Assembly: GCA_963775735.1 (NCBI GenBank)
Contig: CAVZKD010000007.1
Location: 2,177,239 to 2,241,238 of the forward strand
Length of the DNA: 64,000 bases
Direction: 5' to 3'
Origin: an uncultured Actinomycetes bacterium
GTDB lineage: Bacteria > Actinomycetota > UBA4738 > HRBIN12
Shown here: piece by piece, positions 14,576-55,312 of the stretch
How the letters are laid out: each line of letters opens with the position of its first letter
How positions within the stretch are numbered: position 1 is the stretch's first letter
Notes under the pieces: generated by a model
Database searches by the model: none
Told to the model about the DNA's origin: nothing
Seen by the model: the letters and a program-made list of their open reading frames with translations, nothing else
Program-made: the position numbers and the translations under genes

Positions 14576-15395
14576 ATGGGCAAGCACGGGTACGAGTCGC
14601 CCGAACAGGAGTGGCACGACTTCCTGAGCGGGACCCATCCGCACCTGAAGGACAAGAGCCCGCTCCGGTTCATCCCCTCCAGCCCGAGGTGCAAGCTGTG
14701 CAGGGCTCCCTTCGGCGCCCCGGGCCGGATGCATCCTGCAGCGCTTCGGCTACTCCCCGTGGGAGAAGAACCCGAAGCTGTGTGGCCGTTGCTTCAAGGG
14801 CCTCGCGACCGGCGCGCAGATGTGCCCCGTCAGCTCGGAGAACCCTGAGGTCGCGGGGGCCGAGGTCGAGGCCTCGATGTTGTTCGCCGACGTCCGTGGC
14901 TCGAGCAAGCTCGCGCGGCAGATGTCCTCGATGGACTTCACGCGGCTCATGAACCGGTTCTACACGGTGTCCAGGGAGGTCCTGGTCGAGTCGGACGCGA
15001 TCGTCGAGAAGTTCGTGGGGGACGAGGTCGTTGGCCTGTTCCTCCCGTTCCTCGCGGGCCAGGAGCACGCCGTGCGAGCGGTGGAGGCGGCGGAGGCGCT
15101 CCTGCGGGCGACGGGTCACGGGACGGACGAGGGCCCGTGGGTGCAGCTGGGCGCCGGGGTGCACACCGGACGTGCGTTCGTCGGCGTCGTCGGTTCGAAA
15201 GAGGCCGCGGACTTCACCGCGCTGGGCGACCCGGTGAACATCGCCGCGCATCTCGCGGCAACCGCCGCGGCCGGGGAGATCCTCATCACGGACGAGGTCG
15301 CGGCCGCGGTCCCCGGCCGGGGATCGGAACGGCGACAGGTCTCCCTGAAGGGGCATCCCCTCGAGGTCCTGGTCCTCGAGCCCCAACCCGCGTGA
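14576..15395 (+). pseudogene. Class III adenylate/guanylate cyclase with an N-terminal Cys-rich (zinc-ribbon-like) segment; one frame break ~14730.
   Basis: CKLCRAPFG...LCGRCFKGL is followed by the cyclase core MLFADVRGSS, EKFVGDEVVGLF and DFTALGDPVNIAAHL. The stop overlaps the next gene's GTG (GTGA at 15392-15395). Confidence 0.8.
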
Positions 15396-18232
15396 ACCTC
15401 CTCGCACGCGCGTTCCGGATCCAGCCGGGCGAGGGGCGGAACGCCGGCCTGCTCATCGCGACGATGGTCGTCGCCACCGCCGGCCACACGATCGGCGAGA
15501 GCGGCGTGAGCGCGTTGTTCTTCGAGCGCGTCGGCGCCGACGCGCTCCCTCGCATCTACCTGGTGCAGGGGGTCGTCGGGCTCGCGGCGATGTTCGCCCT
15601 CACCGCGCTGCTCGCGCGGATGGACCGCCGCCGGGCGTACGTCTCCCTGCTGCTGCTCACCGGTGCGGTCGTCACGGTGGAGCGCGTGATCCTGGTCGGC
15701 GAACCGTCGTGGATCTTCCCCGTCCTGTGGCTCACGGTCTCCGTCGCCATGCTCGTGCAGGCGGTCTCGCTGTGGGGCACGGCGGGTCTGGTCACCGACA
15801 CCCGGCGCGCGAAGCGGCTGTTCCCGCTGTTCGGCGCCGGGGCGATCCTCGGCGCCGTGGTCGGCGGCCTCTCGACGAGACCGCTGGCCGCGACGATCGG
15901 CGTGCAGAACCTCCTGCTCGTGTGGGCCGGGTGCCTCGGGGTCGGCGCGCTCCTGTCGGCCACGGTGCTCGGAGGCGCCGCGGCCCGGCGTCCCCGCCGG
16001 GCCCCGCGCCGGCGCGGGGCACCGATGCGGGACATGTTGCAGGGCTTCACGTTCGTCCGGCGCTCCCCGCTGCTCGCATGGATGACGGCGGCATCCGTGT
16101 GCTTCTCCATCCTGTTCTTCCTGCTGTACCTCCCGTTCGCGCAATCCGCGACGTCCCGGTTCGCCGACACGGACCAGCTCGCGGGGTTCCTCGGCGTGTT
16201 CTCGGCGATCGTGACCGCGTTCGCGTTCGTCGCCTCGTTGTTCCTGACGAACCGGCTCATCGGTTGGTTCGGCGCCACCGCGATGATCCTGGTGCTCCCG
16301 ATCCTGTACGCGGGGTCGTTCGGCGCGCTGCTCGTCAGCACCTCGTTCGCGACGATCGTGGCCGTCCGGTTCGGGGTGTCCGTCTGGCTGCAGGGCGTGT
16401 GCTCCCCCGCGTGGGAGACCCTCGTCAACGTCGTCCCGGAGTCGCGCCGCGATCAGGTGCGGGCGTTCCTGAACGGCGGTCCGACCCAGGTGGGGACCGC
16501 GATCGCCGGCATCGTCGCCCTCGTCGGCCAGGAGGTGCTCTCGGCGCGGCAGCTCTCCGCGATCGGTCTGGTGATCGCCGTCGTCACCGCAGCGATCGCA
16601 TGGCGGATCCGGCGCTCCTACACGGGGGCGTTGGTCGACGCGCTCCGAGCTGGACGACCGACCGTGTTCGAGGGGCGGCCGCTCGAGGGCGCTCCCATCG
16701 CGCCCGGCACCGACGGTCAGGCGGTCGCCCTCGCGATCGGGTCGTCGCGCGACCCCGACCCGCACGTCCGACGGCTGGCCGTCGAGCTGCTCGCGACCTC
16801 CGGCGAGGGGCGCGTCCGGGGGACGCTCGTGGAACGCTCCACGGACGAGGACGCGATCGTCCGGATGCACGCGATCCGCGGGCTCGCTCGGTCGAGCGCG
16901 ACCGACGACCCCGCCGTGTTCGAGCACGCGCTGCGCGACCCCGATCCCGGCGTCCGGCGTGCGGCGATCGAGGCGCTCCGGACGACGTCCGCGGCGCGGA
17001 CGATCGAGCCGTTCCTCGCGGACGCCGATCCGGCGGTCGCCGCGGCGGCCGGAGTCGCGCTCCTCCCGGCGCGGGAGGCGGCCGATCGCCTGCTCGAGCT
17101 CCTCTCGGATCCCGACCCCGAGGTGCGGCTCGCGACCGTTCGGGGGCTGGGCGTCGCCGAACCGCGCGACGCGCTGGCGTTCGCCACCCCGCGGCTCGAG
17201 GACCCATCGCTCCTGGTCCGCGCGGAGGCGCTGGACATCGTCGCGCGCGCCGAACCGGAGGCGGCGGTCGAGCCGGGCCTGGCCGCCCTCCTCGGCGACG
17301 ACGACGGGATGCGCCGGTCGGCCTTCGACACGCTCGCCGTGCTCGACCTCGGGGGACAGGTCGCGGCGCTCCTCGACGCGGCCCGGAGGCGTGGAGCCCT
17401 CGCGATCCACGATGGGGACCTCGCCGCGTCGATCCCGCCGGACGGCGACGCGTCCGAGCTCCTCCGAGCCGCGCTGATCGCTCGCGGACGCTCGCACGCC
17501 GTCGTGGCCCTGTCGGCCCTCGCGCTGGCGAGCGGCGACCGCGAAGCGATGCGGATCGCGATCGACAACCTGCAGGCATCCGAGTCCGCGCAGCTCGCGA
17601 ACGCGCTCGAGACGCTCGAGGCGTCCGAACATCGGGGCCTCGCCCGGCCGTTGTTCGCGCTGTGGGAGCCGGCGAACGATCGCGCGCCGAGGGAGGATTG
17701 GCTCGAGGCCGCGTCGGATGACCCGGACCCGTTGGTGCGCGCCTGCGTCGACCTGGTGCGAACGACCCGAGGACGAGGAGATGAGATGACCCGCTCCAAG
17801 GCGTCGATGTCCCCGATGGAGCGCGTGCTCGCGCTCCGCAGGATCCCGCTGTTCGCCGACCTCTCGCCCGCCGACCTCTCCACGCTCGCCGGCATCGCCG
17901 AGGAGCGCACGTACGCGGACGCCGAGGTCATCGCCGCGGAAGGCGAGATGGGCGACGAGCTGCACATCATCGTGTCCGGCTCGGTTCACGTGGTGCGCGG
18001 CGACCGCGCGGGCGAACCGATCGCTCGCCGCGGACCCGGCGACGTCGTCGGCGAGATGTCGATCATCTCCCGCGCACCCAGGGTCGCGTCGCTCGTGGCG
18101 GACGGCGACGTGCGGACGGTGGTCATCGGGCAGCGTGAGTTCGAGAGCATCATCCGGGAGCGTCCGGAGGTCTCGCTCGCGGTGATGCGGGTGCTCGCCG
18201 ACCGCCTCGGAGCGGAGACCGCGGAGCGCTAG
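15392..18232 (+). CDS. Polytopic transporter-like (MFS/TLC nucleotide-antiporter-like) membrane protein fused to HEAT repeats and a C-terminal cyclic-nucleotide-binding domain.
   Basis: This is an intact 946-aa frame. The first ~430 aa contain many TM segments. About 8 PBS-lyase-type HEAT repeats follow (DPDPHVRRLAVELL, DPDPGVRRAAIEAL, DPDPEVRLATVRGL...). The CNB cassette is RRIPLFADLSPADL...GDVVGEMSIISRAPRVASLVA. Confidence 0.85.
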   Translation: MNLLARAFRIQPGEGRNAGLLIATMVVATAGHTIGESGVSALFFERVGADALPRIYLVQGVVGLAAMFALTALLARMDRRRAYVSLLLLTGAVVTVERVILVGEPSWIFPVLWLTVSVAMLVQAVSLWGTAGLVTDTRRAKRLFPLFGAGAILGAVVGGLSTRPLAATIGVQNLLLVWAGCLGVGALLSATVLGGAAARRPRRAPRRRGAPMRDMLQGFTFVRRSPLLAWMTAASVCFSILFFLLYLPFAQSATSRFADTDQLAGFLGVFSAIVTAFAFVASLFLTNRLIGWFGATAMILVLPILYAGSFGALLVSTSFATIVAVRFGVSVWLQGVCSPAWETLVNVVPESRRDQVRAFLNGGPTQVGTAIAGIVALVGQEVLSARQLSAIGLVIAVVTAAIAWRIRRSYTGALVDALRAGRPTVFEGRPLEGAPIAPGTDGQAVALAIGSSRDPDPHVRRLAVELLATSGEGRVRGTLVERSTDEDAIVRMHAIRGLARSSATDDPAVFEHALRDPDPGVRRAAIEALRTTSAARTIEPFLADADPAVAAAAGVALLPAREAADRLLELLSDPDPEVRLATVRGLGVAEPRDALAFATPRLEDPSLLVRAEALDIVARAEPEAAVEPGLAALLGDDDGMRRSAFDTLAVLDLGGQVAALLDAARRRGALAIHDGDLAASIPPDGDASELLRAALIARGRSHAVVALSALALASGDREAMRIAIDNLQASESAQLANALETLEASEHRGLARPLFALWEPANDRAPREDWLEAASDDPDPLVRACVDLVRTTRGRGDEMTRSKASMSPMERVLALRRIPLFADLSPADLSTLAGIAEERTYADAEVIAAEGEMGDELHIIVSGSVHVVRGDRAGEPIARRGPGDVVGEMSIISRAPRVASLVADGDVRTVVIGQREFESIIRERPEVSLAVMRVLADRLGAETAER

Positions 18233-21200
18233 GGGTTCGGCCCCGGTTCGCCGAGCGCGATGACCTCGTCGCCGGCGAGGAAGCTCGCGCGGAGGTGCTG
18301 CGTCGTCGATGCCGGCCGCGATCCGGTCCACGATCGCTCGCGCGCGTCGCCGGTCATCGGCGGCATCCGATCCGTGCCCGCGCCGCTCGAGCGCCTCGGC
18401 CCGGAGCGCGAGCGCTTCCCACAGTGGAAGCGGCTCGCCGAGTCGCTCGGCGCGCTCGACCGTATCCGCAAGCGCTCGCCCGGCCTCCTCGTCCAGCCCG
18501 AGTGCGATCCGGGCCCTCGCGAGGATCAACGTCGCCTCCGCGACCAGGATCTCAGCCCGGCTGGGCGCGAGCAGTCGAAGCACGCCCTCTGCGGCCCGCC
18601 CCGCTTCCTCCGCCTCTCCGATGGCGAGCGCGACCCGCGCCCGAGCGAAGCCGGCGTAGGTGAGCAGGAGCGTGCGGTCCGGCTCGGGGAAGGGCGGATC
18701 GATCACGTGGTCGAGCGCTCGTCGCGCCCCATCGAGATCCCCGAGCGCGATCCGCGCATCGGCCTCGGCGACCGCCGCGATCGGCACGGCCGGAGGGAAG
18801 TCGTCCCGAGCGATCGCGAGCGCCTCCTCCGCGAGCCGCAGAGCTCGTTCGCCGTCCCGTAGGTACGCGAGGACACGCGCGAGGTCGGCACGCGTCGCCA
18901 CGGCGGCGTAGCCGAACCCGCCCTGTTCCCCAGCCTCCCGGCAGCGCTCGATGGAGCCCATCCCATCCCCGAGGTCGCCCTGGTCGAGCTGGACGTGATA
19001 CACGCCCATCAGCGCCAGCGATTCCCCCCACCGGTTGCCGATCGACTCGGCGATGGTGACCGCGAACCGAGCCTCCGACATCGCTCCCGCGTGGTCGCCC
19101 GCCAGCAGCCGCATGGCGCTCGACACCGCCAGGTTGTCGCCCAGCATCGGGCGGTTGTCGAGGTCCTCCCACAGCGCGCGGGCCTCGACGAGCCGGTCGG
19201 CCGCCGTCGGGAAGTCGCCGGCGGACATGTAGGCGCGCGAGAGATCGTTCAACGTGAACGCCAACTGCTCGCGCTCGCCGAGGTCCCTGGCGATCGCGAG
19301 CGAGGCCTCCCCCGCCTCGATGGCGCGCCCCGCGTCCGTCCCGCCACCGTAGATGTTCGAGACGAGGACGTTCCACAGCGCGCGGGCCTCGGCGGCCCGG
19401 TCTCCGAGCCGGCGCGCCATGACGGCGTTCCCTTCGGAGAGGCGGCGACCGCGCTCGGCGTCGAACAACGGCGACGGGGTCGCGTACAGGAGCGCGATCG
19501 CCGAGTTCGCGGCCAGCTCCATGGCCTCGTCGCTCCTCGACCTGGCCTCCGAACGCATCTCCTCGTAGTTGCCGATCGCGTCGTCGTGACGGCCGGCGAG
19601 TTCGAGCGCGGTCCCACGACGTTCGTACATCGATCGGAGCAGCGACGCCTCCGCGCCGACACGTCGCGCGACGTCGAGCCCGACCCGGTAGTGGGCCTCG
19701 GCCTCGGCGTTCGCGTACAGGCGGGTCGCCGCGTCGGCGGCCATCACCGCGAACCGCAGGGTCGCCTCGTCCTCGCCCGCCTCCGCGAAGTGGCGGACCA
19801 GCGAGGCGGCGACCTCCTCCAGCCGTTCGGCGTTCGCGGCCTCGAGCGCCTCGGCGACGCGCCGGTGCACGACCCGGCGCTGCTTCTGCAGGAGCGACCC
19901 GTAGGCGGCCTCGTGGGTCAGCGCGTGGCGGAACGTGTACGTGGGCCGGGGGACCAGCGTCGTCGAGCGGATCAGGTCGCGCACCTCGAGCTCGCGCAGA
20001 TCGGCGTCCAGGTCGCCGTTCGCCTCCGCGACCGTCCCGAGGATCTGCTCGTCGAACGACCGGCCGATGACCGCCGCGACCTGCAGCGTGCGCGAGTCCC
20101 CTCCGGCAGGCGGTCGAACCCCGCCGTGATCAGGCTCTGCACGGTGTCGGGATCGCGACGTCGGTGACGTCGCCGGCGAGCCGCCGGCCGTCGGCGGTCT
20201 GCTCGACGACGCCGCGGTCGATCAGGGCCCGCGCGACCTCCTGGACGAACAGCGGGTTCCCGTCGGTCTTCTCGCCGATCCGCCGGCGCACCGGGCCGGG
20301 CAACGCCTCGACCTGGAGGAGCTCGTCGATCAGCTCGTCGCTCTGCTCGGCCGTCAGGGGTCGAGCTCGAGGAGCGTCGACCGGTCCGCGAGCTCGGAGC
20401 GGATCCACTGCTGGAAGTGCCCACGACGCGGCATCTCGATCGGGACGGAACGTGAACAACAGGACGAACGGGTGGTCCAGCACGAGCCGGATCGGGCGCG
20501 CGCACGAGCTCGAGCGACGCGTGGTCGCACCAGTGCATGTCCTCGAAGACGATGAGCCGTTGCCCACCCTGCGCGATCGTCGATCCGACGAGCACCTCGT
20601 TCGCCTCGCGCTGGAACGCCTCGCCCTCCAATCGCGGCTCGTCCGCGAGCTCGACGCCGAGGAGCGCCCGCCAGAGACGCTCGCTCCGCTCCGCCCACCC
20701 CGGGCCGGCGTGCTGCATGTACCGAGCGATCTTCCCGCACCACGTCGGCGCGGATCGGCCTCGACGATGCCCGCGCGCTCCAGCATCTGCCGCCGGTACT
20801 GCGCGTAGGGCTGCATCGTGTCGTACGGGACGCACTGCCAGGAGTCCCAGCGCCGGTCGTCGTCCGGGTACCGCTCGGCCCACAGCGCGTTCGCCTCCTC
20901 GACGAGCCGGCTCTTCCCGAGGCCCGGCTCGCCCGAGATGAGCACGACGGACCCGCGGCCGCGCCGCACGTCGTCGATCGCGGCTCGCAGCACCGCCATC
21001 TCCGCGGCACGGCCCACGAGCGGCGCCTCGAGCGACCTGGCCCCACGGACCTTCCAGGGCGACGTCGAGGCGGCCCGCGCACCCGGTACGCGGGCACCGG
21101 CTCGCGCTTGCCCTTCAGCTCCACCGGGCCGAGGGACTCGGCGTCGAACAGGTCGGCCACGAGCCGGTACGTGTCCTCGGTGATCTGCACGGTCCCGGGC

Positions 21201-21745
21201 TCGGCCGTCTGCTCCATCCGCGCGGCGACGTTGACCGCGTCGCCCATCGCCGTGTACTCGCGTCGGAGCTCGGACCCGACCTCGCCGACCACGACCGGTC
21301 CGGTGTTGATCCCGACGCGAACGTTCAGGTCGAGCCCGTGCTCACGGGCGAGCCGCTCTCGCAGCGGCCCGACCGAGGAGACGATCTCGAGGCCGGCCAT
21401 GACGGCGCGCTGCGGGTCGTCCTCGTGCGCCCTCGGGGCGCCGAAGAAGGCGAGGATCGCGTCGCCCATGAGGCGCGCCACGGTGCCCTCGTAGCGATAG
21501 ACCGGCGCGATGAGGTGCTCGTAGGCCTCGTTCATCACGTCGGTCCACGCCTCCGCGTCGAGCTCCTCGGCCATCGCGGTCGAGCCCCGCACGTCGCAGA
21601 ACAGCATCGTGACGACGCGGTGTTCGCCGGAGCAGCTCGCGCTGCTCGACCTGCCGCGCCACACCCTCCCGAGCCGCGCGCCGCAGGAGTTGCAGAAGCG
21701 CGAACCCTCGGGGTTGTCCGCTCGACAGCTCGCGCACGCCAGCAT
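18229..21745 (-). pseudogene. Zinc-ribbon + class III cyclase + STAND/AAA_16 ATPase + TPR protein, with at least 6 frame breaks.
   Basis: Motifs in order are CASCRADNPEGSRFCNSCGARL; VVTMLFCDVRGST..GDAVNVAARMEQ; Walker A GEPGLGKSRL; IVFEDMHWCD; TDGNPLFVQEVARAL; TFRHALTHEAAYGSLL; long TPR-like repeats; and the end LRASFLAGDEVIALGEPGPNP*. The pieces are spread over three frames. Confidence 0.8.
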
Positions 21746-31723: not shown

Positions 31724-34700
31724 GTGAAACGTTGCGCATCGTGCGGCGAGGAGAACGCGGATCGAGCTCGATTCTGTCAGCGCTGCGCGGCGCCACTCGA
31801 AGCGGCAGAAGAACGCTCCGAGGTCCGCAAGGTCGTCACGATCGTGTTCGCGGACGTCACCGGCTCGACCGCGTTGGGCGAGCGGCTCGACCCCGAGGCG
31901 CTCCGCCGGGTGATGGGTCGGTACTTCGACGAGATGTCCGCGGTGATCGAACGTCACGGCGGAACGGTGGAGAAGTTCATCGGCGATGCGGTGATGGCCG
32001 TGTTCGGGATCCCCCGCCTCCACGAAGACGACCCGCTCCGTGCGGTCCGTGCGGCGGCCGGCATGCGCGAGGCGCTCACGGGGCTCAACGCCGATCTCGA
32101 ACGCGACCACGGCGTCGGCCTCGCCGCTCGCATCGGCGTGAACACCGGGGAGGTGGTCACCGGCGACGCGGGCTCCGATCAGCGGCTCGTGACCGGGGAC
32201 GCCGTGAACGTCGCCGCCCGCCTGGAGCAGGCGGCTCCAGCCGGCGAGGTCCTGCTGGGCGACTCCACATATCGCCTGGTCAAGGACGCGGTACAGGTCG
32301 AGCCCGTCGAACCGCTCGAGCTGAAGGGCAAGTCGGAACCCGTCCCCGCGTACCGCCTCGTGCAGGTGCTCGAGGCCCCAGAAGGGCATGCCCGGAACCT
32401 CGACTCGCCGATGGTCGGGAGGGCCAAGGAGCTCGAACTCCTCGAACGCGCACTCGACCGCGCGGTGTCGGAACGGACCTCACACCTGTTCACGCTCCTC
32501 GGGCCCGCGGGCGTCGGGAAGTCGCGGCTGGTACAGGAGTTCCTCTCCGGGACGGGAGCGACCGCCCGCCTGCTGCGCGGCCGCTGCCTCTCGTACGGAG
32601 ACGGCATCACGTTCTTCCCGCTCGCCGAGATCGTCGAGGAGGCCGCCGGCATCTCGCGGGACGACGATCTGGAGACGGCGCGCTCGAAGGTTCGCGGGTT
32701 GCTCGCTGGCGCGGACGACGCCGAACGCATCGTGTCGCTCGTCGGGAGCCTCCTCGGGTGGGGGGGCGAGTCCGGCGCGAGCGAAGAAGCGTTCTGGGGC
32801 GTCCGCAAGCTCCTCGAACACCTCGCGAGCGAGCGACCCGTGGTCGTCGTGTTCGACGACATCCATTGGGCCGAACCGACCTTCCTCGACCTCATCGAGC
32901 ACCTGGCGGACTGGACGCGCGATGCCGCGCTGTTGTTGCTCTGCGTCGCCCGGCCCGAGCTGCTCGAGGTGCGGACGAACTGGGGCGGCGGCAAGCTGAA
33001 CGCGACGACGATCCTGCTCGAGCCGCTCCCGGACGAGCAGGCGTCGCAACTCGTGGACAACCTGCTCGGACGCGCCGACATCCCACCGGTCGCCCGACGA
33101 CGGATCCTCGAGGCGTCCGAGGGCAACCCGCTGTTCGTCGAGGAGATGCTGGGCATGCTGATCGACGACGGATTGCTGCGCTTCGAGGACGGCTCATGGC
33201 GACCGGTCGAGGACCTCGCCGACGTCACGGTCCCGCCGACGATCCAGCTGCTGCTCGCCGCTCGACTTGATCGGCTCGATTCCGAGGAGCGCGGCGTGAT
33301 CGAACGAGGCTCGGTCGAGGGCAAGGTCTTCCACGCCGGGGCGGTCACCACGCTCTCCCCCGAGGCACAGCGGCCCACCGTCCGGCCGCGGTTGCTCGCG
33401 CTCGCGCGCAAGGAGCTGATCCGGCCGGACCGAGCCGACTTCGCGGGGGAGGACGCGTTCCGGTTCCGTCATCTCCTGATCCGCGACGCCGCGTACCAGG
33501 CCATGCCCAAAGAGCAACGCGCCGACCTGCACGAGCGCTTCGCGGGCTGGCTCGAACGCACGGCCGGCGACCGCGTCCTCGAGTACGAGGAGATCCTCGC
33601 GTACCACCTCGAACAGGCGTACCGCTTCCGGGTCGAGCTCGGCCCTCCGGACGACCGGACGCGAGCGATCGCGCAGGCCGCGGCGACCCGACTGCTCTCA
33701 TCGGCCGATCGAGCGGAGGAGCGGGGCGACTACGCGACCGCGCAGTCGCTGCTCGAGCGGTGTGCCGAGCTCTCCGAAGGCGCCGAGCGGGCGCACGCGC
33801 TCACGGTGCTCGCCTCCGCGCTGAGCGAGCTCAACGACTTCCCTGCCGCGATGGAGACCGCAACCCAAGCCCTCGCGGCCGCCACGAGCGCGGGCGACGA
33901 GCAGTACGCCCTCCGCGCCGAGCTCGTCCGGATCGAGGCGCGCGCGCACGTCGACCCCTCGTACCCGAGCGCGAAGACTCGACAGGACACCGAGTCGGTC
34001 CTCCGCCGGCTGGAGGAGATCGGCGACGACGACGGCGTCTTCCGCGCGCTTCTCGCGGTCGGGCGCCTCGACTTCTACGAGGGCCACTGCATGAAGAGTC
34101 TCGCCGTTTCGCAGCGGCTGTTCGAACGGGCCCGTGGCAAGTCGTATCGAGACCGGATCGCTGTTGCGCAGGCGTTCGGCAGCGCCGCCTTCTTCGGTCC
34201 ACTCCCCCCGGACGAGTCGTTGGAGCTCGTCGACCGAGCCTTGGAGCTCGTCGCCGGAAGCATCGTCGACGACGCTGCATTCGGATCGGTGCGCGCGGGG
34301 CTGTTCGCGATGCAGGGTCTCTCCGACGACGCCCGAGGCGAGATGGCGCGCGCACGCGGCCTCTGGGCGGAGCTCGGCGACCCGAGCATCATGACGATCA
34401 CGTTCCTCGCGACCGGCAACATGGAGATGATCCTCGGAAGTCCCGAACGAGCCGAGCGGGCCTTCCGAGAAGGGGTGGAGCTGCTCGACCGGCTCGGGGA
34501 GACCGGGTTCAATTCCACGTTCTTGGCCGGCCTGGCGAGCGCGCTTTGCGAACAGGGACGGTTCGATGAGGCCGAGGAGATCGCACGCCGCAGCGAAGCG
34601 CTCACTGCCGAGGGCGACTTCGCCTCTGAAGCGTGGTGGCGGCAGGCGCAAGCGCTGGTCCTGTCGAGCCGGGGCGATCACGACGGGGCGATCGCGATGG

Positions 34701-34909
34701 CCGACGCGGCGATCGCCTTCGTGCAACCGACGGACTACGTCGGGATGATCGGCGATGCGCACGAGGTGCGAGGGGTCGTGTTGGCGGCCGCCGGACGGCA
34801 CGATGATGCTCAGGCGTCGTTCGAAGAAGCTATCGCATCACTCGAGCGGAAGGGCATCGTCCCCGCGATCGCGCGGTTGCACCGGCGCATCGCCGCGCTG
34901 CCGTCGTAG
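31724..34909 (+). CDS. Zinc-ribbon + class III adenylate/guanylate cyclase + STAND/AAA_16 ATPase + TPR protein (intact).
   Basis: Motifs in order are CASCGEENADRARFCQRCAAPL; VVTIVFADVTGST, EKFIGDAVMAVFG and GDAVNVAARLEQ; Walker A GPAGVGKSRL; VVFDDIHWAEP; SEGNPLFVEEML; then about 450 aa of TPR-like repeats. It is a single 1061-aa ORF. Confidence 0.9.
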   Translation: MKRCASCGEENADRARFCQRCAAPLEAAEERSEVRKVVTIVFADVTGSTALGERLDPEALRRVMGRYFDEMSAVIERHGGTVEKFIGDAVMAVFGIPRLHEDDPLRAVRAAAGMREALTGLNADLERDHGVGLAARIGVNTGEVVTGDAGSDQRLVTGDAVNVAARLEQAAPAGEVLLGDSTYRLVKDAVQVEPVEPLELKGKSEPVPAYRLVQVLEAPEGHARNLDSPMVGRAKELELLERALDRAVSERTSHLFTLLGPAGVGKSRLVQEFLSGTGATARLLRGRCLSYGDGITFFPLAEIVEEAAGISRDDDLETARSKVRGLLAGADDAERIVSLVGSLLGWGGESGASEEAFWGVRKLLEHLASERPVVVVFDDIHWAEPTFLDLIEHLADWTRDAALLLLCVARPELLEVRTNWGGGKLNATTILLEPLPDEQASQLVDNLLGRADIPPVARRRILEASEGNPLFVEEMLGMLIDDGLLRFEDGSWRPVEDLADVTVPPTIQLLLAARLDRLDSEERGVIERGSVEGKVFHAGAVTTLSPEAQRPTVRPRLLALARKELIRPDRADFAGEDAFRFRHLLIRDAAYQAMPKEQRADLHERFAGWLERTAGDRVLEYEEILAYHLEQAYRFRVELGPPDDRTRAIAQAAATRLLSSADRAEERGDYATAQSLLERCAELSEGAERAHALTVLASALSELNDFPAAMETATQALAAATSAGDEQYALRAELVRIEARAHVDPSYPSAKTRQDTESVLRRLEEIGDDDGVFRALLAVGRLDFYEGHCMKSLAVSQRLFERARGKSYRDRIAVAQAFGSAAFFGPLPPDESLELVDRALELVAGSIVDDAAFGSVRAGLFAMQGLSDDARGEMARARGLWAELGDPSIMTITFLATGNMEMILGSPERAERAFREGVELLDRLGETGFNSTFLAGLASALCEQGRFDEAEEIARRSEALTAEGDFASEAWWRQAQALVLSSRGDHDGAIAMADAAIAFVQPTDYVGMIGDAHEVRGVVLAAAGRHDDAQASFEEAIASLERKGIVPAIARLHRRIAALPS

Positions 34910-36375: not shown

Positions 36376-36627
36376 TTAGAGAGGCATCATCATGATCGAA
36401 GGCTCGTTCTGCATCCCCTTGTCTCTCAGCGTCCCGGTCGTATGGGCGATCACGTTGAGTTCGCCGTGCGAGAGCGTCTTCAGCGTGTTGATGAAATCTG
36501 CGGGGATCTGACTTGCGTCGATACCCTCGCTATCCATCGCCCCATCTGGGTCGTGCGAGAATCTCGCTCGGAACTGTCCTTTCCCCATGGCGATCGCGAG
36601 CTTCTCGACCTCCTCTTCAGCACTCAT
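36376..36627 (-). CDS. 83-aa NHLP-clan/Os1348-like helical small protein (possible RiPP precursor or carrier-like peptide).
   Basis: The ATG at 36627 follows AAAAGGGGGGGAC. FRARFSHDPDGAMDSEGIDASQIPADFINTLKTLSHGELNVI resembles NHLP-type leader helices. The C-terminal tail is GMQNEPSIMMMPL. GC is visibly lower than in the flanks. Confidence 0.5.
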   Translation of the reverse strand: MSAEEEVEKLAIAMGKGQFRARFSHDPDGAMDSEGIDASQIPADFINTLKTLSHGELNVIAHTTGTLRDKGMQNEPSIMMMPL

Positions 36628-36909
36628 GTCCCCCCCTTTTCGCAGGATTCCACCGCACGCCCTACACCTCCCGCTTGACCGTGTCAAACCGCGTGCTCAG
36701 GGTGAGACGAGAGCATCCCTTCCTTGCCCGGAGAACGAGGGACTTCGAGCCCGTCCCTCCCGGACAGCCGTGGGGACGCGGCGGTCGCCAACGGCGTGGT
36801 GCCGCGGTGTCGGTGTTGATCCGAGCAGCGCAGATGGGGTAGCCGCTCCCTTCCAGGGGTTGCGCGGCCGTGACTTCCGCCCTCCGAGTGACTGGCGTAC
36901 GTTCCTTCT

Positions 36910-39900
36910 ATGGAGTTCCGGATCCTCGGAACGCTCGAGGTCTCCACGGATGAAGGCCCGCTGCCGCTGGGTGGCCCCAAGCAGCGGCTGGTCCTGGCGC
37001 ACCTCATCGTGCGTGCGAACGCAGTGGTTCCCGCGGATGTCCTGATCGATGAGGTGTGGGGAGAGGAGCCTCCCGAAACGTCGCGTGGCACGCTGCAGTC
37101 ATACGTCTCGCACCTTCGGCAGTTGCTCGGGGCGAGACTCGAAGGACGCCAACCCGGCTACGTGCTGCACATCCATGAGGGCGAGCTCGACGCCGCGTCG
37201 TTCGAGGCGAAGGTCAAGGAGGCCAAGGTGTTGGTGGCCTCCGAACCGGCCAATGGGGCGGCCGCGTTCGCTGACGCTCTCGAGCTCTGGCGTGGGCCGG
37301 CCTTCGCGGACCTGGCCGAAGAGCTCTCGCTCCGTGGCGAGATCGCGCGGCTGGAAGAGCTCCGCCTAGCGGCGACCGAGCACCGGGTCGCGGCCGAGCT
37401 CGCGCTGGGGCGCCACTCCACCGTGGTCTCCGAGCTCGAGGCCCTGACCGTCCGATATCCGTTGCGTGAGCGGTTGTGGGCCCATCTGATGCTCGCGCTC
37501 TTCCGAAGCGGCCGCCAGGCGCAGGCACTCTCGACCTACGAACGCGCGCGACAGGTGCTGGCTTCGGAGCTCGGCGCGGACCCATCCCCGGAGCTCCAGC
37601 AGCTCCACCGGCAGATCCTGAGCCAGGACCCCGAGCTGAGGGGGCCGCTCGCGCCCGCCCCGACCCCGGCCGCTCCGACCGCTCCGACCGCCCCGACCTC
37701 GATCGCTCGCCCTCCGAAGGAGGATCTCGGGCCGGGCGTCGATTTCGCCGCCTACCGGATCGAGGGGATCATCGGTCGCGGCGGCATGGGCGTCGTGTAT
37801 CTCGCCGAGCACGAGGGCCTGAGGCGGAAGGTCGCGTTGAAGCTCCTCGCCCCCCCGCTGGCGGAGGACCATCGGTTCCAGGAGCGGTTCGTTCGGGAGT
37901 CCCGATTGGCCGCGTCGATCGATCACCCGAACGTGATCCCGATCTACGAGGCCGGCGAGGCCGACGGCCGGTTGTACATCGCGATGCGGTACGTGGAGGG
38001 AACGAACCTCGGCACCCTGCTGCGCGAGAAGGGCGCGCTCGACACCATCCAGGCATCTCGGATCGTCGGTCAGGTCGCCGCTGCGCTCGACGCCGCCCAC
38101 GAGCAGGGGCTCGTGCACCGCGACGTCAAGCCCGCGAACATCCTCATCGCACGACAGCGAGGCACGGAGGCCGGCACGCACGCGTACCTCACCGACTTCG
38201 GGCTCACCAAAAGGTCCGCGAGCGATTCGGGTGTTACCGGGACCGGTCAGTTCGTGGGAACACTCAACTACGCGGCACCCGAGCAGTTCCGCGGCGGGAC
38301 CGCGGACGCGAGAACCGACGTGTACTCGCTCGGTTGCGTGCTCTACGAGTGCCTCTCGGGACATCCACCCTTCCGGGCCGAGAACGACGCCGCCCTGATG
38401 TTCGCGCATCTGATGGAGGAGCCACCGGCGCTGACGGCGGTGCGCTCCGATCTACCGATGGACATCGACGAGGTGGTCGCAACGGCGATGGCCAAGAAGC
38501 CGGAGGATCGCTTCCCGAGCGCCGGCGTGTTCGCTTCCCGAGCCTCCGCGGCTCTCAGCCACCCATCGGATGGATCGCGGACCGACCGCGGAGAGGACCT
38601 CGACAGCGCCCCAGGCTCAACCGGGGCCCGGAAGGTCGTGACCGTCCTGTTCTGCGACGTCGTCGGGTCCACAGACCTAGGGGAATCGCTCGATCCCGAG
38701 TCACTCCGCCGGGTGATGACGCGGTACTTCGAAGCGATGAAAGCCGTCCTCGATCGGCACGGCGGCCGCGTTGAGAAGTTCATCGGAGACGCGATCATGG
38801 CCGTCTTCGGTGTTCCGGTCGCGCACGAGGACGATGCCCATCGGGCCGTACGCGCGGCGACGGAGATGCGAGAGGTGCAACGGAGGCTGAACGAGGAATT
38901 CCAGGATGCGTGGGGCGTCCGGGTCACCAGTCGCATCGGCGTGAACACGGGAGAGGTCGTCACCGGGGACCCCGCGACCGGTGGAACCTTCGCCACGGGG
39001 GATGCGGTCAACGTTGCCGCACGTCTTGAGCAGGCTGCCGAGCCCGGCGAGATCTTGGTCAGCGAGGCGACCTACCGGTTGATCCGGGACCTGGCGTCCG
39101 CCGAATCGATCGCGCCGCTTGCCATGAAGGGGAAGGCCCGACCCGTTGCGGCATGGAGGTTGCTCGAGATAGCCGCGGGCGCGGCCCCGCGAGGGGCGCC
39201 GGGTTTGGACTCCCCCCTCGTTGGCCGCGAAGTCGAGCTCGCTGACCTTCATGCGTCCTTCCAACGCGCGGTCGAGGCGCGGACATGCGAGATCGTGACG
39301 GTGCTCGGCGCCGCGGGCGTCGGCAAGTCGCGACTGATCTCGGAGTTCCACAGGGACCTGACCGGCGAGGTCCGGGTGGTCAGAGGCCGCTGTCTCCCCT
39401 ACGGGGAGGGGATCACGTTCTGGCCCCTTGTCGGCGTCCTGCGGGAATCTGCGGGTATCGGCGAGATGGACTCACCGGAGCAGGCCGAAGCGAAGTTCGC
39501 TGTGCTGCTGAAGGCAGCGAAGGACTCGGTCCTCGTCCGACAGCGCCTGACCGCACTCCTCGGGATCTCCGATGTGGCGCCCGGGATGCAGGAAACCTTC
39601 TGGGCCGTACGCAAGCTCTTCGAAGAACTGGCGAGTCGAGAACCTCTGGTGGTGGTGTTCGACGATATCCATTGGGGCGAGCCCACCTTCCTCGATCTGC
39701 TCGAGTACCTGGTCGACTGGTTGCAAGGCGTGCCGGTGCTGCTCGTCTGCATGGCCCGTCCAGACCTGCTCGAGGTCCGCGCAGAATGGCTCAGCGGCAA
39801 GACGAACGCGGTCCTGATCAGACTCCGCCCATTGGCCGAATCGGAGACCGAGCGGTTGATCCGGAACCTGCTGGGAAGCACGCCCGCCGAGGGGGCGGTC

Positions 39901-41718
39901 GTCAGCATCGCCGACGTTGCGGAGGGCAACCCGTTGTTCGTCGAGGAGACCCTTCGCATGCTGATCGACGAAGGCACCCTTCAGCGCCGGAACGGGAGTT
40001 GGAGCGTCGTCGCGGACCTGTCAACCCTTTCGATCCCACCCACCATCCAGTCCCTGCTGACCGCTCGGGTCGACATGCTCGGCGAAGGTGAGCGCGACGT
40101 GATCGAACGGGCCTCGGTCGTCGGACGGGTCTTCTGGTGGGGAGCGGTCACCGAGCTCTCTCCCCCCGAGCATCGCGCTCACGTGGGCGGCTGGCTGCAG
40201 TCGCTCGTCCGGAAGGAACTGATCCGACCGGAGCACTCCGATCTGATGGAGGACGACGCGTACCGCTTCACCCACATCCTGGTCCGAGATGCGGCGTATG
40301 GGGGCGTCCCCAAGGCCCGTCGAGCCGAACTGCACGAGCGGTTCGCCCGCTGGCTCCAGGAGCAGAGTCGCGACCGCGCCGGTGAGTACGAGGAGATCGT
40401 CGGGTACCACCTCGAGCAGGCATGCCGGACGCTCCGCGAGCTCGGTCCCGTCAACGAGCACACCCGAGCGATGGGGTTGCAAGCCGCTGTGCCGCTCGCG
40501 TCGTCGGGCAGACGGGCCCTTGCTCGAGGTGACATGCCGGCCGCCGTCAACCTGCTGTCCCGGGCGACGTCGCTCACTCCGGCGGACGATCGGGACCGGA
40601 TGACGCTCTTGCCTGATCTTGCCTTCGCCCTCCTACAGACCGGCGACTTCAGCAGGATGCGTGAGGTGCTGACCGAATTGCAGCAGGCCGCGGGCGATGT
40701 CCTTCTCGGAGCTCACGCCCTCCTCCTTGACCTGTGGCTTCGGCTGTTCACCAATCCCGAAGGGTGGGCTGAGGAGGCGTCCCGGGAAGTGACCCGGGCG
40801 ATGTCGATCTTCGAAGATCACCACGACGACCGAGGCGTGGCACAGGGCTGGGCCCTGCTCGGCCTCTCTCGGATGATCGGGGGCCGATTCGCCGAGGCCG
40901 TGGAGGCGTGGGAGGAAGCGGCCGACCACGCCTCAACGGCCGGCGCCCACCGAGAGGAGCTCGAGAACCTGTCGTGGGTCCCCGTCGGGATCTGGTCGGG
41001 TCCGATGCCCGTGGACGAGGGCATCCGACGGTGTCAGGAGATCCTCGAGCGAGCCCAGGGAGATCGGAAGACGATGGCCGTCGCCCTCGCCATCTGCGGG
41101 AACCTCGAGGCGATGCGGTCACGGTTCGACGAGGCCCGGGAGCTGGGCGCGCGAGCTCGGTCGGTCATCCAGGAGGTCGCTCTGCCCGGGTGGATGGGCG
41201 CGCTCACGCAGATGTCCGGATGGACGGAGATCCTGGCAGGGGACCCGGCGACCGCCGAACGAGACCTCCGCTGGGGTGTCGAGACGCTTCGCGGGATCGG
41301 CGAGTTGACCTGGCTTTCGACCACGGCAGCGATCCTCGCTGAGGCCCTCTATGCACAGGGCCGGCTCGAGGAAGCCGAGGAGTTCGTGAAGGTGAGTCAC
41401 GAGACCGCCGGAAGCGAGGACATCTTCTCCCAGGTCCTGCTGAGAAGCGTCAGGGCGAAGGTGATGGCCCAGCTCGATCGGCCGGACGAGGCCGAGCTGC
41501 TCGCTCGGAAGGCGGTCGCCATCGCCACGTCGAGCGACTCCCTGCTCCTGCAAGCGGAGGCCTTCACCAGTCTCGCCCATGTCATGGGGGCGGCGGACCG
41601 GGCAGCAGAAGGCGAGGCGGCGTTGGCCGAAGCCCGGCGCGCGTGCGAGCAGAAGGGGAACGTGGCCGGGGCGGACCGAGCTCGGAGACTGTTCGAGGCG
41701 TCGCGGCGACCCACGTGA
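36910..41718 (+). CDS. 1602-aa multidomain regulator: SARP (OmpR-type wHTH + BTAD) + Ser/Thr protein kinase + class III cyclase + STAND/AAA_16 ATPase + TPR.
   Basis: SARP: MEFRILGTLEV...LWRGPAFADL...LMLALFRSGRQAQALSTYERAR. Kinase: GRGGMGVVYLA, HRDVKPANIL, DFG, APE. Cyclase: VVTVLFCDVVGST, EKFIGDAIMAVFG, GDAVNVAARLEQ. ATPase: Walker A GAAGVGKSRL, VVFDDIHWGEP, EGNPLFVEETL. A long TPR-like tail follows. There are no frame breaks. Confidence 0.9.
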   Translation: MEFRILGTLEVSTDEGPLPLGGPKQRLVLAHLIVRANAVVPADVLIDEVWGEEPPETSRGTLQSYVSHLRQLLGARLEGRQPGYVLHIHEGELDAASFEAKVKEAKVLVASEPANGAAAFADALELWRGPAFADLAEELSLRGEIARLEELRLAATEHRVAAELALGRHSTVVSELEALTVRYPLRERLWAHLMLALFRSGRQAQALSTYERARQVLASELGADPSPELQQLHRQILSQDPELRGPLAPAPTPAAPTAPTAPTSIARPPKEDLGPGVDFAAYRIEGIIGRGGMGVVYLAEHEGLRRKVALKLLAPPLAEDHRFQERFVRESRLAASIDHPNVIPIYEAGEADGRLYIAMRYVEGTNLGTLLREKGALDTIQASRIVGQVAAALDAAHEQGLVHRDVKPANILIARQRGTEAGTHAYLTDFGLTKRSASDSGVTGTGQFVGTLNYAAPEQFRGGTADARTDVYSLGCVLYECLSGHPPFRAENDAALMFAHLMEEPPALTAVRSDLPMDIDEVVATAMAKKPEDRFPSAGVFASRASAALSHPSDGSRTDRGEDLDSAPGSTGARKVVTVLFCDVVGSTDLGESLDPESLRRVMTRYFEAMKAVLDRHGGRVEKFIGDAIMAVFGVPVAHEDDAHRAVRAATEMREVQRRLNEEFQDAWGVRVTSRIGVNTGEVVTGDPATGGTFATGDAVNVAARLEQAAEPGEILVSEATYRLIRDLASAESIAPLAMKGKARPVAAWRLLEIAAGAAPRGAPGLDSPLVGREVELADLHASFQRAVEARTCEIVTVLGAAGVGKSRLISEFHRDLTGEVRVVRGRCLPYGEGITFWPLVGVLRESAGIGEMDSPEQAEAKFAVLLKAAKDSVLVRQRLTALLGISDVAPGMQETFWAVRKLFEELASREPLVVVFDDIHWGEPTFLDLLEYLVDWLQGVPVLLVCMARPDLLEVRAEWLSGKTNAVLIRLRPLAESETERLIRNLLGSTPAEGAVVSIADVAEGNPLFVEETLRMLIDEGTLQRRNGSWSVVADLSTLSIPPTIQSLLTARVDMLGEGERDVIERASVVGRVFWWGAVTELSPPEHRAHVGGWLQSLVRKELIRPEHSDLMEDDAYRFTHILVRDAAYGGVPKARRAELHERFARWLQEQSRDRAGEYEEIVGYHLEQACRTLRELGPVNEHTRAMGLQAAVPLASSGRRALARGDMPAAVNLLSRATSLTPADDRDRMTLLPDLAFALLQTGDFSRMREVLTELQQAAGDVLLGAHALLLDLWLRLFTNPEGWAEEASREVTRAMSIFEDHHDDRGVAQGWALLGLSRMIGGRFAEAVEAWEEAADHASTAGAHREELENLSWVPVGIWSGPMPVDEGIRRCQEILERAQGDRKTMAVALAICGNLEAMRSRFDEARELGARARSVIQEVALPGWMGALTQMSGWTEILAGDPATAERDLRWGVETLRGIGELTWLSTTAAILAEALYAQGRLEEAEEFVKVSHETAGSEDIFSQVLLRSVRAKVMAQLDRPDEAELLARKAVAIATSSDSLLLQAEAFTSLAHVMGAADRAAEGEAALAEARRACEQKGNVAGADRARRLFEASRRPT

Positions 41719-53639: not shown

Positions 53640-55312
53640 GTGTCCTCCTCGGACCCGCGCATCGGGAGTCGGATCGGCGGCTACGCGATCCAGTCCGTGC
53701 TGGGCCGCGGAGGCATGAGCGTCGTCTATCTGGCAGAGGACACCAGGCTCGACCGCAGGATCGCGCTCAAGGTGATGGCCGACGAGCTCGCGGGGAACGA
53801 GTCGTTCCGGACGCGCTTCATCCGCGAGGCGCACATGGCGGCCAACATCGAGCACCCGAACATCGTGCCCCTCTACGACGCGGGAGAGATCGACGGCGTC
53901 TTGTACCTGGCGATGCGTGTGATCCGCGGGACCGACCTGCGACAGGTGATCGATGACGAGGGGGTCCTCGATCCCGAACGCACGATGGCGATCATGCGCC
54001 AGGTCGCGAGCGCGCTCGACGCCGCGCATCGCGCAGGCCTGGTACACCGAGACGTGAAGCCCGGGAACATCCTGCTCGCGACGGACGGCGACGAAGAGCA
54101 CGCCTACCTCTCCGACTTCGGGCTGACCAAGCAGGCCTCATCCGACAGCGGCCTGACGAAGACCGGGACGTTCCTGGGGACGGTCGATTACGTCGCTCCG
54201 GAGCAGATCCGGGGGCACGAGGTCGACGGGCGCACCGATCAGTACTCGCTCGGCTGCGTGTTGTACGAATGCCTGACCGGCAGCGTGCCGTTCGTCAAGG
54301 ACCAGGACGTGGCGACCCTGTTCGCGCACGTCGAGGACGAGCCACCCCGCCTGTCGTCGATGCGCCCCGAGCTGCCGGAGGCGGTGAGCGGCGTCGTCGC
54401 CCGCGCGATGGCCAAACAGCGGGAGGCGCGGTTCGACACCTGCCAGGCGTTCGTGCAGGCGGCTCGCACCGCGCTCCGAGAGCCGGCCCGACCACCTCCC
54501 GCTCCGACCGTCGTCGCGGCCGGCGCCGCCGCGATCTCGGTCCCGCCGGCTCCTCCGGGACCCGATCGGGCACCGCCCGAACCCACCCCGTCGCGCGGCT
54601 CACGGCGCTGGCTGCTGATCGCGGCGATCGTCGCGGCGGTCGCGATCGCCGGCATCGTCGCCGGCATCGCCCTCACTCGCGACGGTCAGGAGCGGGCGGA
54701 CCCGACGGGAAGCACCGGCTCGACCGGCGTGACCGGGCCGACGGGCCCGACGGACCCGACCGGAGCGACCGCCCCGACCGGAGCGACCGGCCCGTCCGCG
54801 ACGGGTCCGACGGCGCCGACCGGTACCACGGGAGCCCCGCCCGCGTCCGGTTGTCCGGGACCGGAGGACTCATTCGACACGGGCGAACCTCCATTGGTGG
54901 AGGGCGAGCGGTACGGCTGCATCGAGAGGATCTCGCCGTTGCAGCGAACGATGCTCTTCGATCTCGCGACCCTCTATGCGGGGGCCGGCTGCGATCACAG
55001 GCGGCCGATGGAGACGGCGCCGAGGTGCGGTCCGACGGATCGTACGTCGGGAACAGGAACGCCTTCCTGCGGGAGCTCCCGCTCGACCCCGACGTCGAGG
55101 TCGTCCTCCTCGACTGGGACGGATGCCCGCCGTGCGACGAGACGCTCGTCACGGACCTCGACCTGTTCGCGACGGTGATCGACACCTCGGTCGACGAAGG
55201 TGGGAACCAGGTCGTGATCGAGGGACAGACGTATGGGGGAGCTGGGTCGCTGTACCGGCTGACGCTCGCGGACGGCGTCGTCGTTCGGATCGAGGAACAG
55301 CCCCCAGCGTGA
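53640..55312 (+). pseudogene. Transmembrane Ser/Thr protein kinase with an extracellular Thr/Gly/Pro repeat linker and a C-terminal domain; one frame break ~54985-55000.
   Basis: Kinase motifs are [28 protein letters not shown] and APE. The TM segment is [22 protein letters not shown]. The C-terminal sense (..[36 protein letters not shown]...RIEEQPPA*) continues in the -1 frame. Confidence 0.9.
54701..54836 (+). repeat. Imperfect tandem repeats (9/18-nt period) encoding (T/S)G(x)TGP-type triplets inside the kinase linker.
   Basis: The encoded peptide is [47 protein letters not shown]. An exact 16-mer, CCGACCGGAGCGACCG, occurs at 54756 and 54774. Confidence 0.6.

Follow-up and report, generated by a model that had tools for sequence, protein, structure and literature searches.

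Organisation of the five-module gene

Our analysis concerned a 64,000-nucleotide stretch of DNA (hereafter the window; G+C ~70%) from an uncultured Actinomycetes bacterium (GenBank assembly GCA_963775735.1, contig CAVZKD010000007.1) and, within it, the open reading frame (ORF) at 36910..41718 on the plus strand. The ORF is a maximal, unbroken open frame that begins at the first possible ATG after the upstream stop and encodes 1602 amino acids (aa); this protein is called the query, and aa numbers refer to it. An earlier note on the DNA, made from its letters alone, had described a single uninterrupted frame of five modules, and this was confirmed, as five Pfam families scored above their cut-offs and were followed by tetratricopeptide repeats (TPR). 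From the N-terminus the query carries a SARP head, a Hanks-type Ser/Thr kinase, a class III cyclase homology domain, a STAND NTPase, which serves as the nucleotide-binding oligomerisation domain (NOD), and a helical-repeat arm. The junctions proposed at ~37650, ~38600 and ~39200 matched aa 241-274, aa 555-571 and the boundary between the cyclase domain and the NOD at ~aa 760. The query is a cytoplasmic STAND signalling protein with all catalytic and nucleotide-binding residues in place.

All modules lie on the plus strand. The SARP head is composed of an OmpR-type winged helix-turn-helix (aa 1-92, 36910..37185), detected by Trans_reg_C at aa 23-79 (34.8 bits against a cut-off of 26.2) and modelled by AlphaFold2 (AF2) with a predicted local distance difference test (pLDDT) score >95, and of a BTAD domain (aa 93-240, 37186..37629), detected by a full-length Pfam BTAD match at aa 93-237 (2e-43, 148.7 bits against 22.1). 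Residues 2-260 matched EmbR (2FEZ, 2e-43) and AfsR (8K60, 1e-38; also 8JKE) in PDB, and together these matches bore out the proposed winged helix-turn-helix plus BTAD. A disordered, Pro/Ala/Thr-rich linker 1 (aa 241-274, 37630..37731; pLDDT <50 at aa 251-269) follows the head. It holds a 33-nt in-frame PTAPTAPT expansion (~37667-37699) that is absent from both orthologous loci in the alignment, and by this comparison the SARP-kinase linker varies in length between orthologous loci.

The kinase (aa 275-554, 37732..38571) matched Pkinase at aa 282-535 (1.3e-49, 169 bits) and, in PDB, PknE (8e-67) and PknB (8e-57). The GxGxxG, HRD, DFG and APE motifs named in the earlier note were all located between aa 289 and 458, and the catalytic set was complete (Gly-rich loop G289xG291xxG294, K311, E330, H403-R-D405, N410, D429-F-G, A456-P-E458 and R534). 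Residues K311, E330, D405, N410, D429, E458, R534 and T443 were invariant in 31 of 31 kinase-bearing relatives; the invariant Thr443 and the nearby Thr445 occupy positions corresponding to PknB-like activation-loop sites. A second disordered linker (linker 2; aa 555-571, 38572..38622; pLDDT <50) leads to the cyclase homology domain. The AF2 model of aa 1-765 contained three domains mostly with pLDDT >90, values <50 at aa 251-269 and 555-571, and further low confidence in the kinase activation loop; its predicted template modelling score (pTM) of 0.52 indicates domains without fixed mutual packing.

The class III cyclase homology domain (aa 572-760, 38623..39189) was detected by Guanylate_cyc at aa 576-743 (2e-23, 83 bits against a cut-off of 21.9) and aligned in PDB with CyaB (3R5G, 1e-28) and Cya2 (2W01, 2e-27). 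It is followed by a STAND NTPase/NOD of the AAA_16/MalT-LAL type (aa 761-1180, 39190..40449) and a TPR/MalT-like helical-repeat sensor arm that runs to the stop codon (aa 1181-1602, 40450..41718). The boundary between these two modules is approximate, with helical repeats starting at ~aa 1135. AAA_16 matched aa 769-946 (3.7e-23, 83 bits against a cut-off of 32.6), with Walker A at G800AAGVGKS807 and Walker B as LVVVFD918D919. G800, G805 and K806 were invariant in 48 relatives, in which Walker A, Walker B, R950 and F1120-x-H1122 of the winged-helix region were invariant or nearly so. The F-x-H motif at aa 1120-1122 (window ~40267-40275) may be the counterpart of the NLR 'MHD' histidine, a residue that has been reported as an autoactivation switch in AfsR (2026 preprint 10.64898/2026.09.02.748808).

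The sensor arm gave weak Pfam matches to TPR_2, TPR_12 and TPR_MalT across aa 1203-1584 and was modelled by AF2 as paired helices throughout with pLDDT >90. A sequence search of PDB with aa 760-1602 produced no match at E<=1. The AF2 model of this segment (pLDDT 91.9, pTM 0.90) was matched best by Foldseek to 6MFV_A, an archaeal 'STAND protein with TPR' (E 2e-14, 744 aligned columns); Avs3 (8DGC) came second, and SAMD9, MalT (8BOB, TM-score 0.55) and Cdc6/ORC were among the further matches. No NB-ARC match was found with Pfam in the query. The fold match and the NTPase motifs together indicate a MalT/LAL-type (AAA_16) STAND NTPase with a helical-repeat sensor, and not an NB-ARC type. The Walker A motif and TPR sensor of the earlier note were therefore upheld, and its comparison with AfsR holds for the SARP head only, because the NTPase belongs to another type.

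Integrity of the reading frame

The G+C content at third codon positions (GC3) was 0.77-0.91 in frame along the entire ORF, which matches the expectation for one continuous high-GC actinobacterial gene, and neither linker contains an in-frame stop. An ortholog, P0002, was present on a 113-kb contig of the metagenome-assembled genome (MAG) GCA_022627535.1 and was 86% identical to the query over 100% of its length. The surroundings were syntenic: upstream of both genes lie a haem-oxygenase-like gene and a divergent 83-aa ORF, and downstream a convergent GNAT acetyltransferase, a P450 and a methyltransferase.

The ratio of nonsynonymous to synonymous substitution rates (dN/dS) against P0002 was 0.23 for the SARP, 0.23 for the kinase, 0.19 for the cyclase, 0.14 for the NTPase and 0.20 for the TPR module; the estimates spanned 0.19-0.23 for the kinase, 0.19-0.22 for the cyclase and 0.15-0.20 for the TPR. 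Every module of the query thus appears to be under purifying selection (dN/dS 0.14-0.23). The linkers were near neutral at 0.66-0.83 (linker 1 0.80, linker 2 0.83), and the TPR arm was the least conserved module between orthologs (79% identity versus 89-92% for the others).

Gene boundaries between the modules were sought in related genomes, and one candidate was encountered. At locus L002 (ENA ERZ25039531, with Flye-style contig names), the called protein has 1348 aa and no SARP. The SARP module lies directly upstream in a different frame, otherwise intact, with a dN/dS of 0.18 for this part. A 2-nt gap breaks the frame inside a C-run where the BTAD ends, and both halves are under purifying selection; the break is therefore no true boundary but either an error in the homopolymer or a lesion of very recent date. 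The single-gene fusion is real: the syntenic ortholog, the conserved start, the dN/dS of each module, the kind of break in L002 and the AF2 domains all support it. Together with the in-frame GC3, this comparative evidence agrees with the earlier opinion that the fusion is not a frameshift artefact. None of the public sequencing runs contained the query sequence, and the best run shared 24% of sampled words.

Directly 5' of the start codon, ~35-40 nt form a conserved leader (36870..36909, plus strand; CTTCCGCCCTC.G.GTGACTGGCGTAC..). This leader and the start codon were kept in the window and at loci L001 and L002, and the remaining intergenic region was not conserved. No clear Shine-Dalgarno sequence was evident in the leader, and a promoter and terminator search at the gene returned nothing convincing. 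For the ~35-nt segment, either a short leader or a regulatory site is conceivable.

Catalytic residues of the cyclase domain

All six residues of the cyclase hexad were in place (D583, K623, D627, R675, N701 and R705), which supplies the two metal-binding Asp, the transition-state Asn and Arg and the phosphate-binding Arg. The second specificity position was set by the fixed Asn-7 spacing, as HMMER pairwise alignments place the gap here inconsistently. At this position CyaB has Thr, Cya2 has Gly and Rv1625c-type cyclases have Asp, and the query has Phe694. Both a Lys/Asp and a Lys/Thr specificity pair were therefore rejected for the query, and Asp698 of G-D698-A-V-N was likewise rejected as the specificity residue. 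The metal Asp residues, Lys623 and the Asn-x3-Arg motif of the earlier description stood, and its Lys/Asp pair did not. Nearly every relative with intact catalytic residues has a hydrophobic residue (L/F/I/M) at position 694.

The hexad was tallied in a sample biased towards query-like sequences. D-K-D-R-N-R was intact in 53/62 proteins (85%) that consist of the chassis without SARP or kinase. With a SARP only, 34/122 (28%) retained it, with a kinase only 8/32 (25%), and with both 3/10 (30%), and hexad loss was associated with the presence of a SARP or kinase (Fisher's exact test without phylogenetic correction, p = 2e-15). The query clade (P0001, P0002 and P0003) and P0033 were the only SARP- and kinase-bearing proteins in the sample with a full hexad. 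The data suggest that the cyclase is the ancestral effector of the STAND chassis and that, after the addition of another effector, it is often reduced to a scaffold; the original output of the chassis was probably the cyclase. The mycobacterial proteins Mclx2/3, in which a cyclase homology domain is joined to an NTPase and LuxR, also lack canonical cyclase residues, which is the same tendency (PMC4452763). In the query clade the cyclase is probably functional, since the whole hexad has been kept and the dN/dS is 0.19.

Relatives of the five-module protein

A homolog search yielded 6984 proteins at E<=1e-10, and the five query modules were mapped onto the best 120. Among these, 61 were SARP-cyclase-NTPase-TPR proteins and 26 kinase-cyclase-NTPase-TPR proteins, and 16 were SARP-kinase proteins that continue into a transmembrane (TM) helix, DUF6923 and SBP_bac_5. 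A SARP, a kinase, cyclase homology and an NTPase were combined in ~11 of the 120, in three module orders: SARP-kinase-cyclase (P0001, P0002, P0005, P0037 and P0062), kinase-SARP-cyclase (P0006, P0009, P0011 and P0033) and kinase-cyclase-SARP-cyclase (P0007). All five Pfam families were above threshold in P0005, P0037, P0033 and P0007. The relatives found in genomes were all from uncultured soil Actinomycetota, including Gaiellaceae MAGs. P0214 was considered as a further five-module candidate and rejected, being a SARP-kinase-DUF6923-SBP_bac_5 protein.

When 1.84 billion representatives were searched exhaustively by HMMER with aa 1-1200, no additional five-module lineage emerged among the best 150, which were dominated by cyclase-NTPase-TPR proteins, with or without a zinc ribbon, and by SARP-cyclase-NTPase-TPR proteins. 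A scan of species representatives with SARP-domain patterns gave mostly SARP-kinase genes and no SARP-kinase-cyclase-NTPase-TPR gene among the best 80 loci, from which no per-species frequency follows. Six loci in species-representative MAGs (L062, L064, L067, L069, L043 and L044) hold ORFs of ~1900-2040 aa, in which a cyclase-like domain, a SARP and a kinase-like region are followed by >1000 further residues. In the literature searched, no description of a SARP, kinase, cyclase and STAND combination was found.

From these comparisons the five-module form is rare but recurrent, in at least five lineages, and its four-module parents are common, SARP-cyclase-NTPase-TPR proteins very much so in soil Actinomycetota. 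The earlier view of the architecture as unusual is therefore right in that it is rare and undescribed in the literature searched, and needs qualifying in that it recurs and in that the family TIGR03903 already covers four of the modules.

The MAG that encodes P0002 also encodes P0037, so one genome can hold two five-module genes. P0037 was located at L080 (GCA_022627535.1, contig JAKEFP010000035.1, 8001-12815), has a degenerate cyclase (D-T-D-H-T-R) and adjoins a response-regulator-cyclase gene (L080, 12901-14049) and several two-component systems.

Mosaic origin of the query

Query aa 1-550 were 74-94% identical in 50-aa windows to P0066, a SARP-kinase-SBP receptor, and in the sliding window the identity dropped to noise at ~aa 551. 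For aa 551-1602, the rest of the protein, the best matches were the cyclase-NTPase-TPR proteins P0004 and P0008 (42-76%). The recombination breakpoint falls in the disordered linker 2. Judged by these identities, the query is a mosaic in which a SARP-kinase cassette was grafted at ~aa 551-571 onto a cyclase-NTPase-TPR chassis.

P0066, P0064, P0070 and others (L004, L010 and L013) are ~1415-aa proteins with a SARP, a Hanks kinase, a TM helix, DUF6923 and SBP_bac_5. The family occurs in soil Actinomycetota MAGs and is uncharacterised. Its members are predicted to be membrane receptors with an N-terminal DNA-binding head, in a ToxR/CadC-like topology plus a kinase.

When nearest neighbours were determined for the NTPase, kinase and SARP modules, the five-module proteins formed at least five groups, and the NTPase of each group had its nearest neighbour outside the group among three- or four-module proteins. 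A close pair was also found: P0063 (L082) was 79-83% identical to P0005 in the kinase and NTPase and is without a SARP, with a thioredoxin-like gene directly upstream. The sequences point to a recent gain or loss of the SARP between these close relatives. The NTPase neighbours and this pair together indicate that the same module set has been assembled repeatedly.

Neighbouring genes in the window

Genes for cyclase and kinase signalling are unusually numerous in the window. A paralog (31724..34909, plus strand, 1061 aa) lies 2 kb upstream and consists of a zinc ribbon, a class III cyclase, AAA_16 and TPR. Its hexad is intact with Leu at the specificity position, and its cyclase and NTPase are 61% and 53% identical to those of the query; by its domain content it represents the bare chassis of the family. 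A second paralog with a zinc ribbon, cyclase, NTPase and TPR (~21745..~18300, minus strand) appears to be split over at least two frames near 20.3 kb, the pieces being an ORF at 20354..21745, NTPase fragments at 20369-19859 and an ORF at 15116..19984; the locus is a pseudogene or the sequence is in error. The last of these pieces, a 1622-aa minus-strand ORF (15116..19984), has TPR_MalT in its first ~540 aa only. A stand-alone Hanks kinase (53640..55178, plus strand, 512 aa) is 54% identical to the query kinase, and a weak extra cyclase-homology match was seen at 14856-15293 on the plus strand.

Comparison with known systems

Among named families, a close layout was that of TIGR03903, the NCBIfam 'TOMM system kinase/cyclase fusion protein', which has a kinase, cyclase homology, an NTPase and helical repeats in the same order. 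Profile positions 4-1267 aligned end to end with query aa 306-1558 (E 1.6e-130). The score of 437 bits was, however, below the equivalog cut-off of 705.75, and the query has an extra N-terminal SARP; on this alignment the query is a TIGR03903 homolog with the same four-module layout and not an equivalog. According to the TIGRFAMs description, TIGR03903 genes lie near TOMM precursor and cyclodehydratase genes. No TOMM or cyclodehydratase genes were seen within ~10 kb of the query, whose neighbours are the haem-oxygenase-like gene, the 83-aa ORF, the GNAT, P450 and methyltransferase genes and the upstream paralog.

AfsR (SARP, NB-ARC NOD and TPR) shares with the query the SARP head, the effector-NOD-TPR logic and a Ser/Thr that ends Walker A, which is an AfsK target in AfsR and S807 in the query. 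The kinase-to-SARP relation of AfsK and AfsR is, in the query, fused within one chain. Unlike AfsR, the query has an AAA_16/MalT-type NTPase, with a kinase and a cyclase inserted between SARP and NOD, and the NCBIfam AfsR model NF053617 scored 183 bits against a cut-off of 1430, matching only aa 2-256. Because an NB-ARC domain is absent, the query is not an AfsR-type large SARP. The closest characterised SARPs with its kind of NTPase are the SARP-LAL regulators PimR, SanG and FilR, in which a SARP is joined to the same NTPase class in the form of a LAL or 'guanylate-cyclase-like' ATP-binding half without a LuxR helix-turn-helix (HTH). They have no cyclase signature or kinase (PMC10972967), whereas the query has both complete.

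The mycobacterial Mclx proteins (Rv0386, Rv1358 and Rv2488c) resemble the query in having a class III cyclase directly N-terminal to a STAND-type NTPase and a DNA-binding output; their layout is cyclase, AAA/NB-ARC NTPase and LuxR HTH, and some members have non-canonical cyclase residues (PMC4452763). Their DNA-binding domain is a C-terminal LuxR HTH instead of an N-terminal SARP, and they lack a kinase. A MalT-type NOD with a helical-repeat sensor is also found in PknK of M. tuberculosis (kinase, AAA_16 and MalT-like repeats), MalT and PH0952 (6MFV), which, unlike the query, have one effector each. In PknK, the Hanks kinase is N-terminal to the MalT-type NOD. The N-terminal cassette was donated by the family of P0066-type receptors (SARP 70%, kinase 86% identical), which differ in carrying a TM helix and an extracellular solute-binding domain after the kinase in place of cyclase-NTPase-TPR.

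Discussion

The explanation that we favour overall, at a probability of roughly 55%, is that the query is an intact mosaic STAND protein whose switch drives three outputs. Three outputs from one STAND switch are plausible by analogy with MalT, AfsR and other STAND proteins. With ATP bound and a ligand on the TPR arm, the NTPase would open and the protein self-associate, and one such event would switch on the three N-terminal modules together. Joint switching is expected because SARP, kinase and cyclase are all of kinds that are activated by proximity. A class III cyclase has active sites only at the interface of a dimer, and PknB-type kinases are activated by dimerisation and activation-loop phosphorylation. 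The SARP of AfsR binds DNA as a side-by-side dimer, and AfsR is inhibited by its NOD and TPR until ATP binding relieves the inhibition (PMC10936776).

On this model, the cyclase domains of the query would pair head-to-tail to create active sites, with cAMP as the probable product given Lys623, and with a specificity that is uncertain owing to Phe instead of Asp. The kinase domains would trans-autophosphorylate on Thr443/Thr445, and two SARP heads, once freed, would occupy direct repeats next to each other and bring in RNA polymerase. A further, probable role of the kinase lies within the complex, with the SARP or the NTPase as its target, as AfsR is for AfsK. AfsK phosphorylates several sites in the AfsR NOD and TPR, including the last Walker A residue (PMC10936776), the position taken by Ser807 in the query.

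The earlier note had taken three outputs from one ligand-gated oligomerisation event to be implied by the architecture. This was overstated, as the step is inferential and the cyclase catalytic residues have been lost in most SARP- or kinase-bearing relatives. Several observations weigh against the three-output model. In most of those relatives the cyclase is degenerate, so a cyclase output is not general to the architecture, and the missing Asp specificity residue makes the nucleotide product of the query uncertain. ATP left the oligomeric state of AfsR unchanged in vitro (PMC10936776), so that oligomerisation as the activating step is an assumption even for AfsR, the SARP-STAND studied best. 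No SARP-like direct repeats were found in 36600-36960, although targets may lie elsewhere, and a search of RNA runs for query transcripts found nothing. At the junctions, only 100-400-bp low-depth soil-metagenome contigs aligned in the public reads, where conserved motifs attract paralogs. None of the five-module proteins or their four-module parents has been characterised.

A live alternative, possible though not probable, is a serial circuit. The query would be a fused AfsK/AfsR-type pair with SARP transcription as its sole real output; the kinase would regulate the SARP or NTPase of its own complex, and the cyclase would be either a chassis relic or a modulator with local effect. SARP and kinase do travel as a cassette on differing sensors (TM-SBP_bac_5, cyclase-STAND and others), and the kinase residues are invariant in 31 relatives in which the cyclase is often degenerate. 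Kinase-to-SARP pairs are established in PknH-EmbR and AfsK-AfsR (PMC1262709), and phosphorylation of the AfsR NOD by AfsK, including the Walker A Thr at the position of S807, tunes the ATPase (PMC10936776). AfsK phosphorylation, however, hardly altered transcription activation by AfsR in vitro (PMC10936776), the kinase may have substrates in trans, and the query clade keeps the whole hexad at a dN/dS of 0.19, so that its cyclase probably works.

A catalytically silent cyclase is also a live alternative, but a rather doubtful one. The domain would act as a non-enzymatic dimerisation adaptor, leaving DNA binding and phosphorylation as two outputs and no cyclic nucleotide. Such a role would fit the ~70-75% of SARP- or kinase-bearing relatives in which the domain persists although at least one hexad residue is gone, the similar condition of Mclx2/3 (PMC4452763) and the absence of the canonical Asp specificity residue (F694). 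D-K-D-R-N-R is, however, exact in the query, in P0002 and P0003 and in both intact-looking window paralogs, and the cyclase dN/dS is 0.19-0.22. Among the 53 effector-less chassis proteins with an intact hexad, for which the cyclase is the only output, residue 694 is likewise hydrophobic as a rule, so such a residue is compatible with activity in this family.

An anti-phage STAND (Avs/bNACHT-like) with the kinase and/or cyclase as abortive-infection effectors is unlikely. Avs3 (8DGC) was second in the fold search, and PADLOC and NCBIfam gave strong matches to the defence kinases PD-T4-6, mad6 and PglW. These matches were confined to the generic kinase domain (46/46 PADLOC matches cover aa 275-560 only, none the NTPase), on which ground this role was rejected; the neighbours are metabolic or housekeeping genes without a defence island, and the SARP activator head and the large paralog family, with several copies in the 64-kb window, point to regulation. 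Least probable of all is an artefact, either two or three adjacent genes (SARP, kinase and cyclase-STAND) misjoined or a chimeric contig: the SARP-less call at L002, the far closer similarity of the N-terminal 550 aa to another gene family and the junctions lacking read confirmation would allow it, but an independent MAG from NCBI shows the fusion again, at 86% identity and with synteny conserved, the gap that breaks L002 lies in a C-run beside an intact SARP part, four further lineages hold all five Pfam families in one ORF, and codon bias is uniform, with stop-free linkers and a conserved ORF start.

The three-output model can be set in a wider account, which we put forward tentatively and only as a whole. 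The five modules would have been joined independently at least four to five times in three orders within uncultured soil Actinomycetota, and the combination would have been selected as a unit, an AfsK/AfsR-like phospho-switch on a cyclase-STAND chassis. The cyclase domain would double as a dimerisation platform for any effector placed N-terminally, and its catalysis would be lost after a new effector takes over, the query clade being a rare version that still uses transcription, phosphorylation and cyclic nucleotide. SARP-cyclase-NTPase-TPR proteins would then form a third class of large SARPs, outside the current AfsR-like/SARP-LAL scheme.

The query is built wholly from known parts; it is a rare five-module recombination and not a new kind of system. 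Its practical impact is limited for now, the hosts being uncultured. If the coupling is true, a transcription factor, a protein kinase and a second-messenger synthase would all answer to a single sensor, an unusually compact fan-out of a bacterial signal, and the protein would be a natural experiment on STAND switches that drive proximity-activated effectors. The family, with its hundreds of three-, four- and five-module variants and its cyclase decay, is suited to the study of domain shuffling and effector replacement, and it points to a large group of SARPs in uncultured soil Actinomycetota outside the Streptomyces-centred classification.

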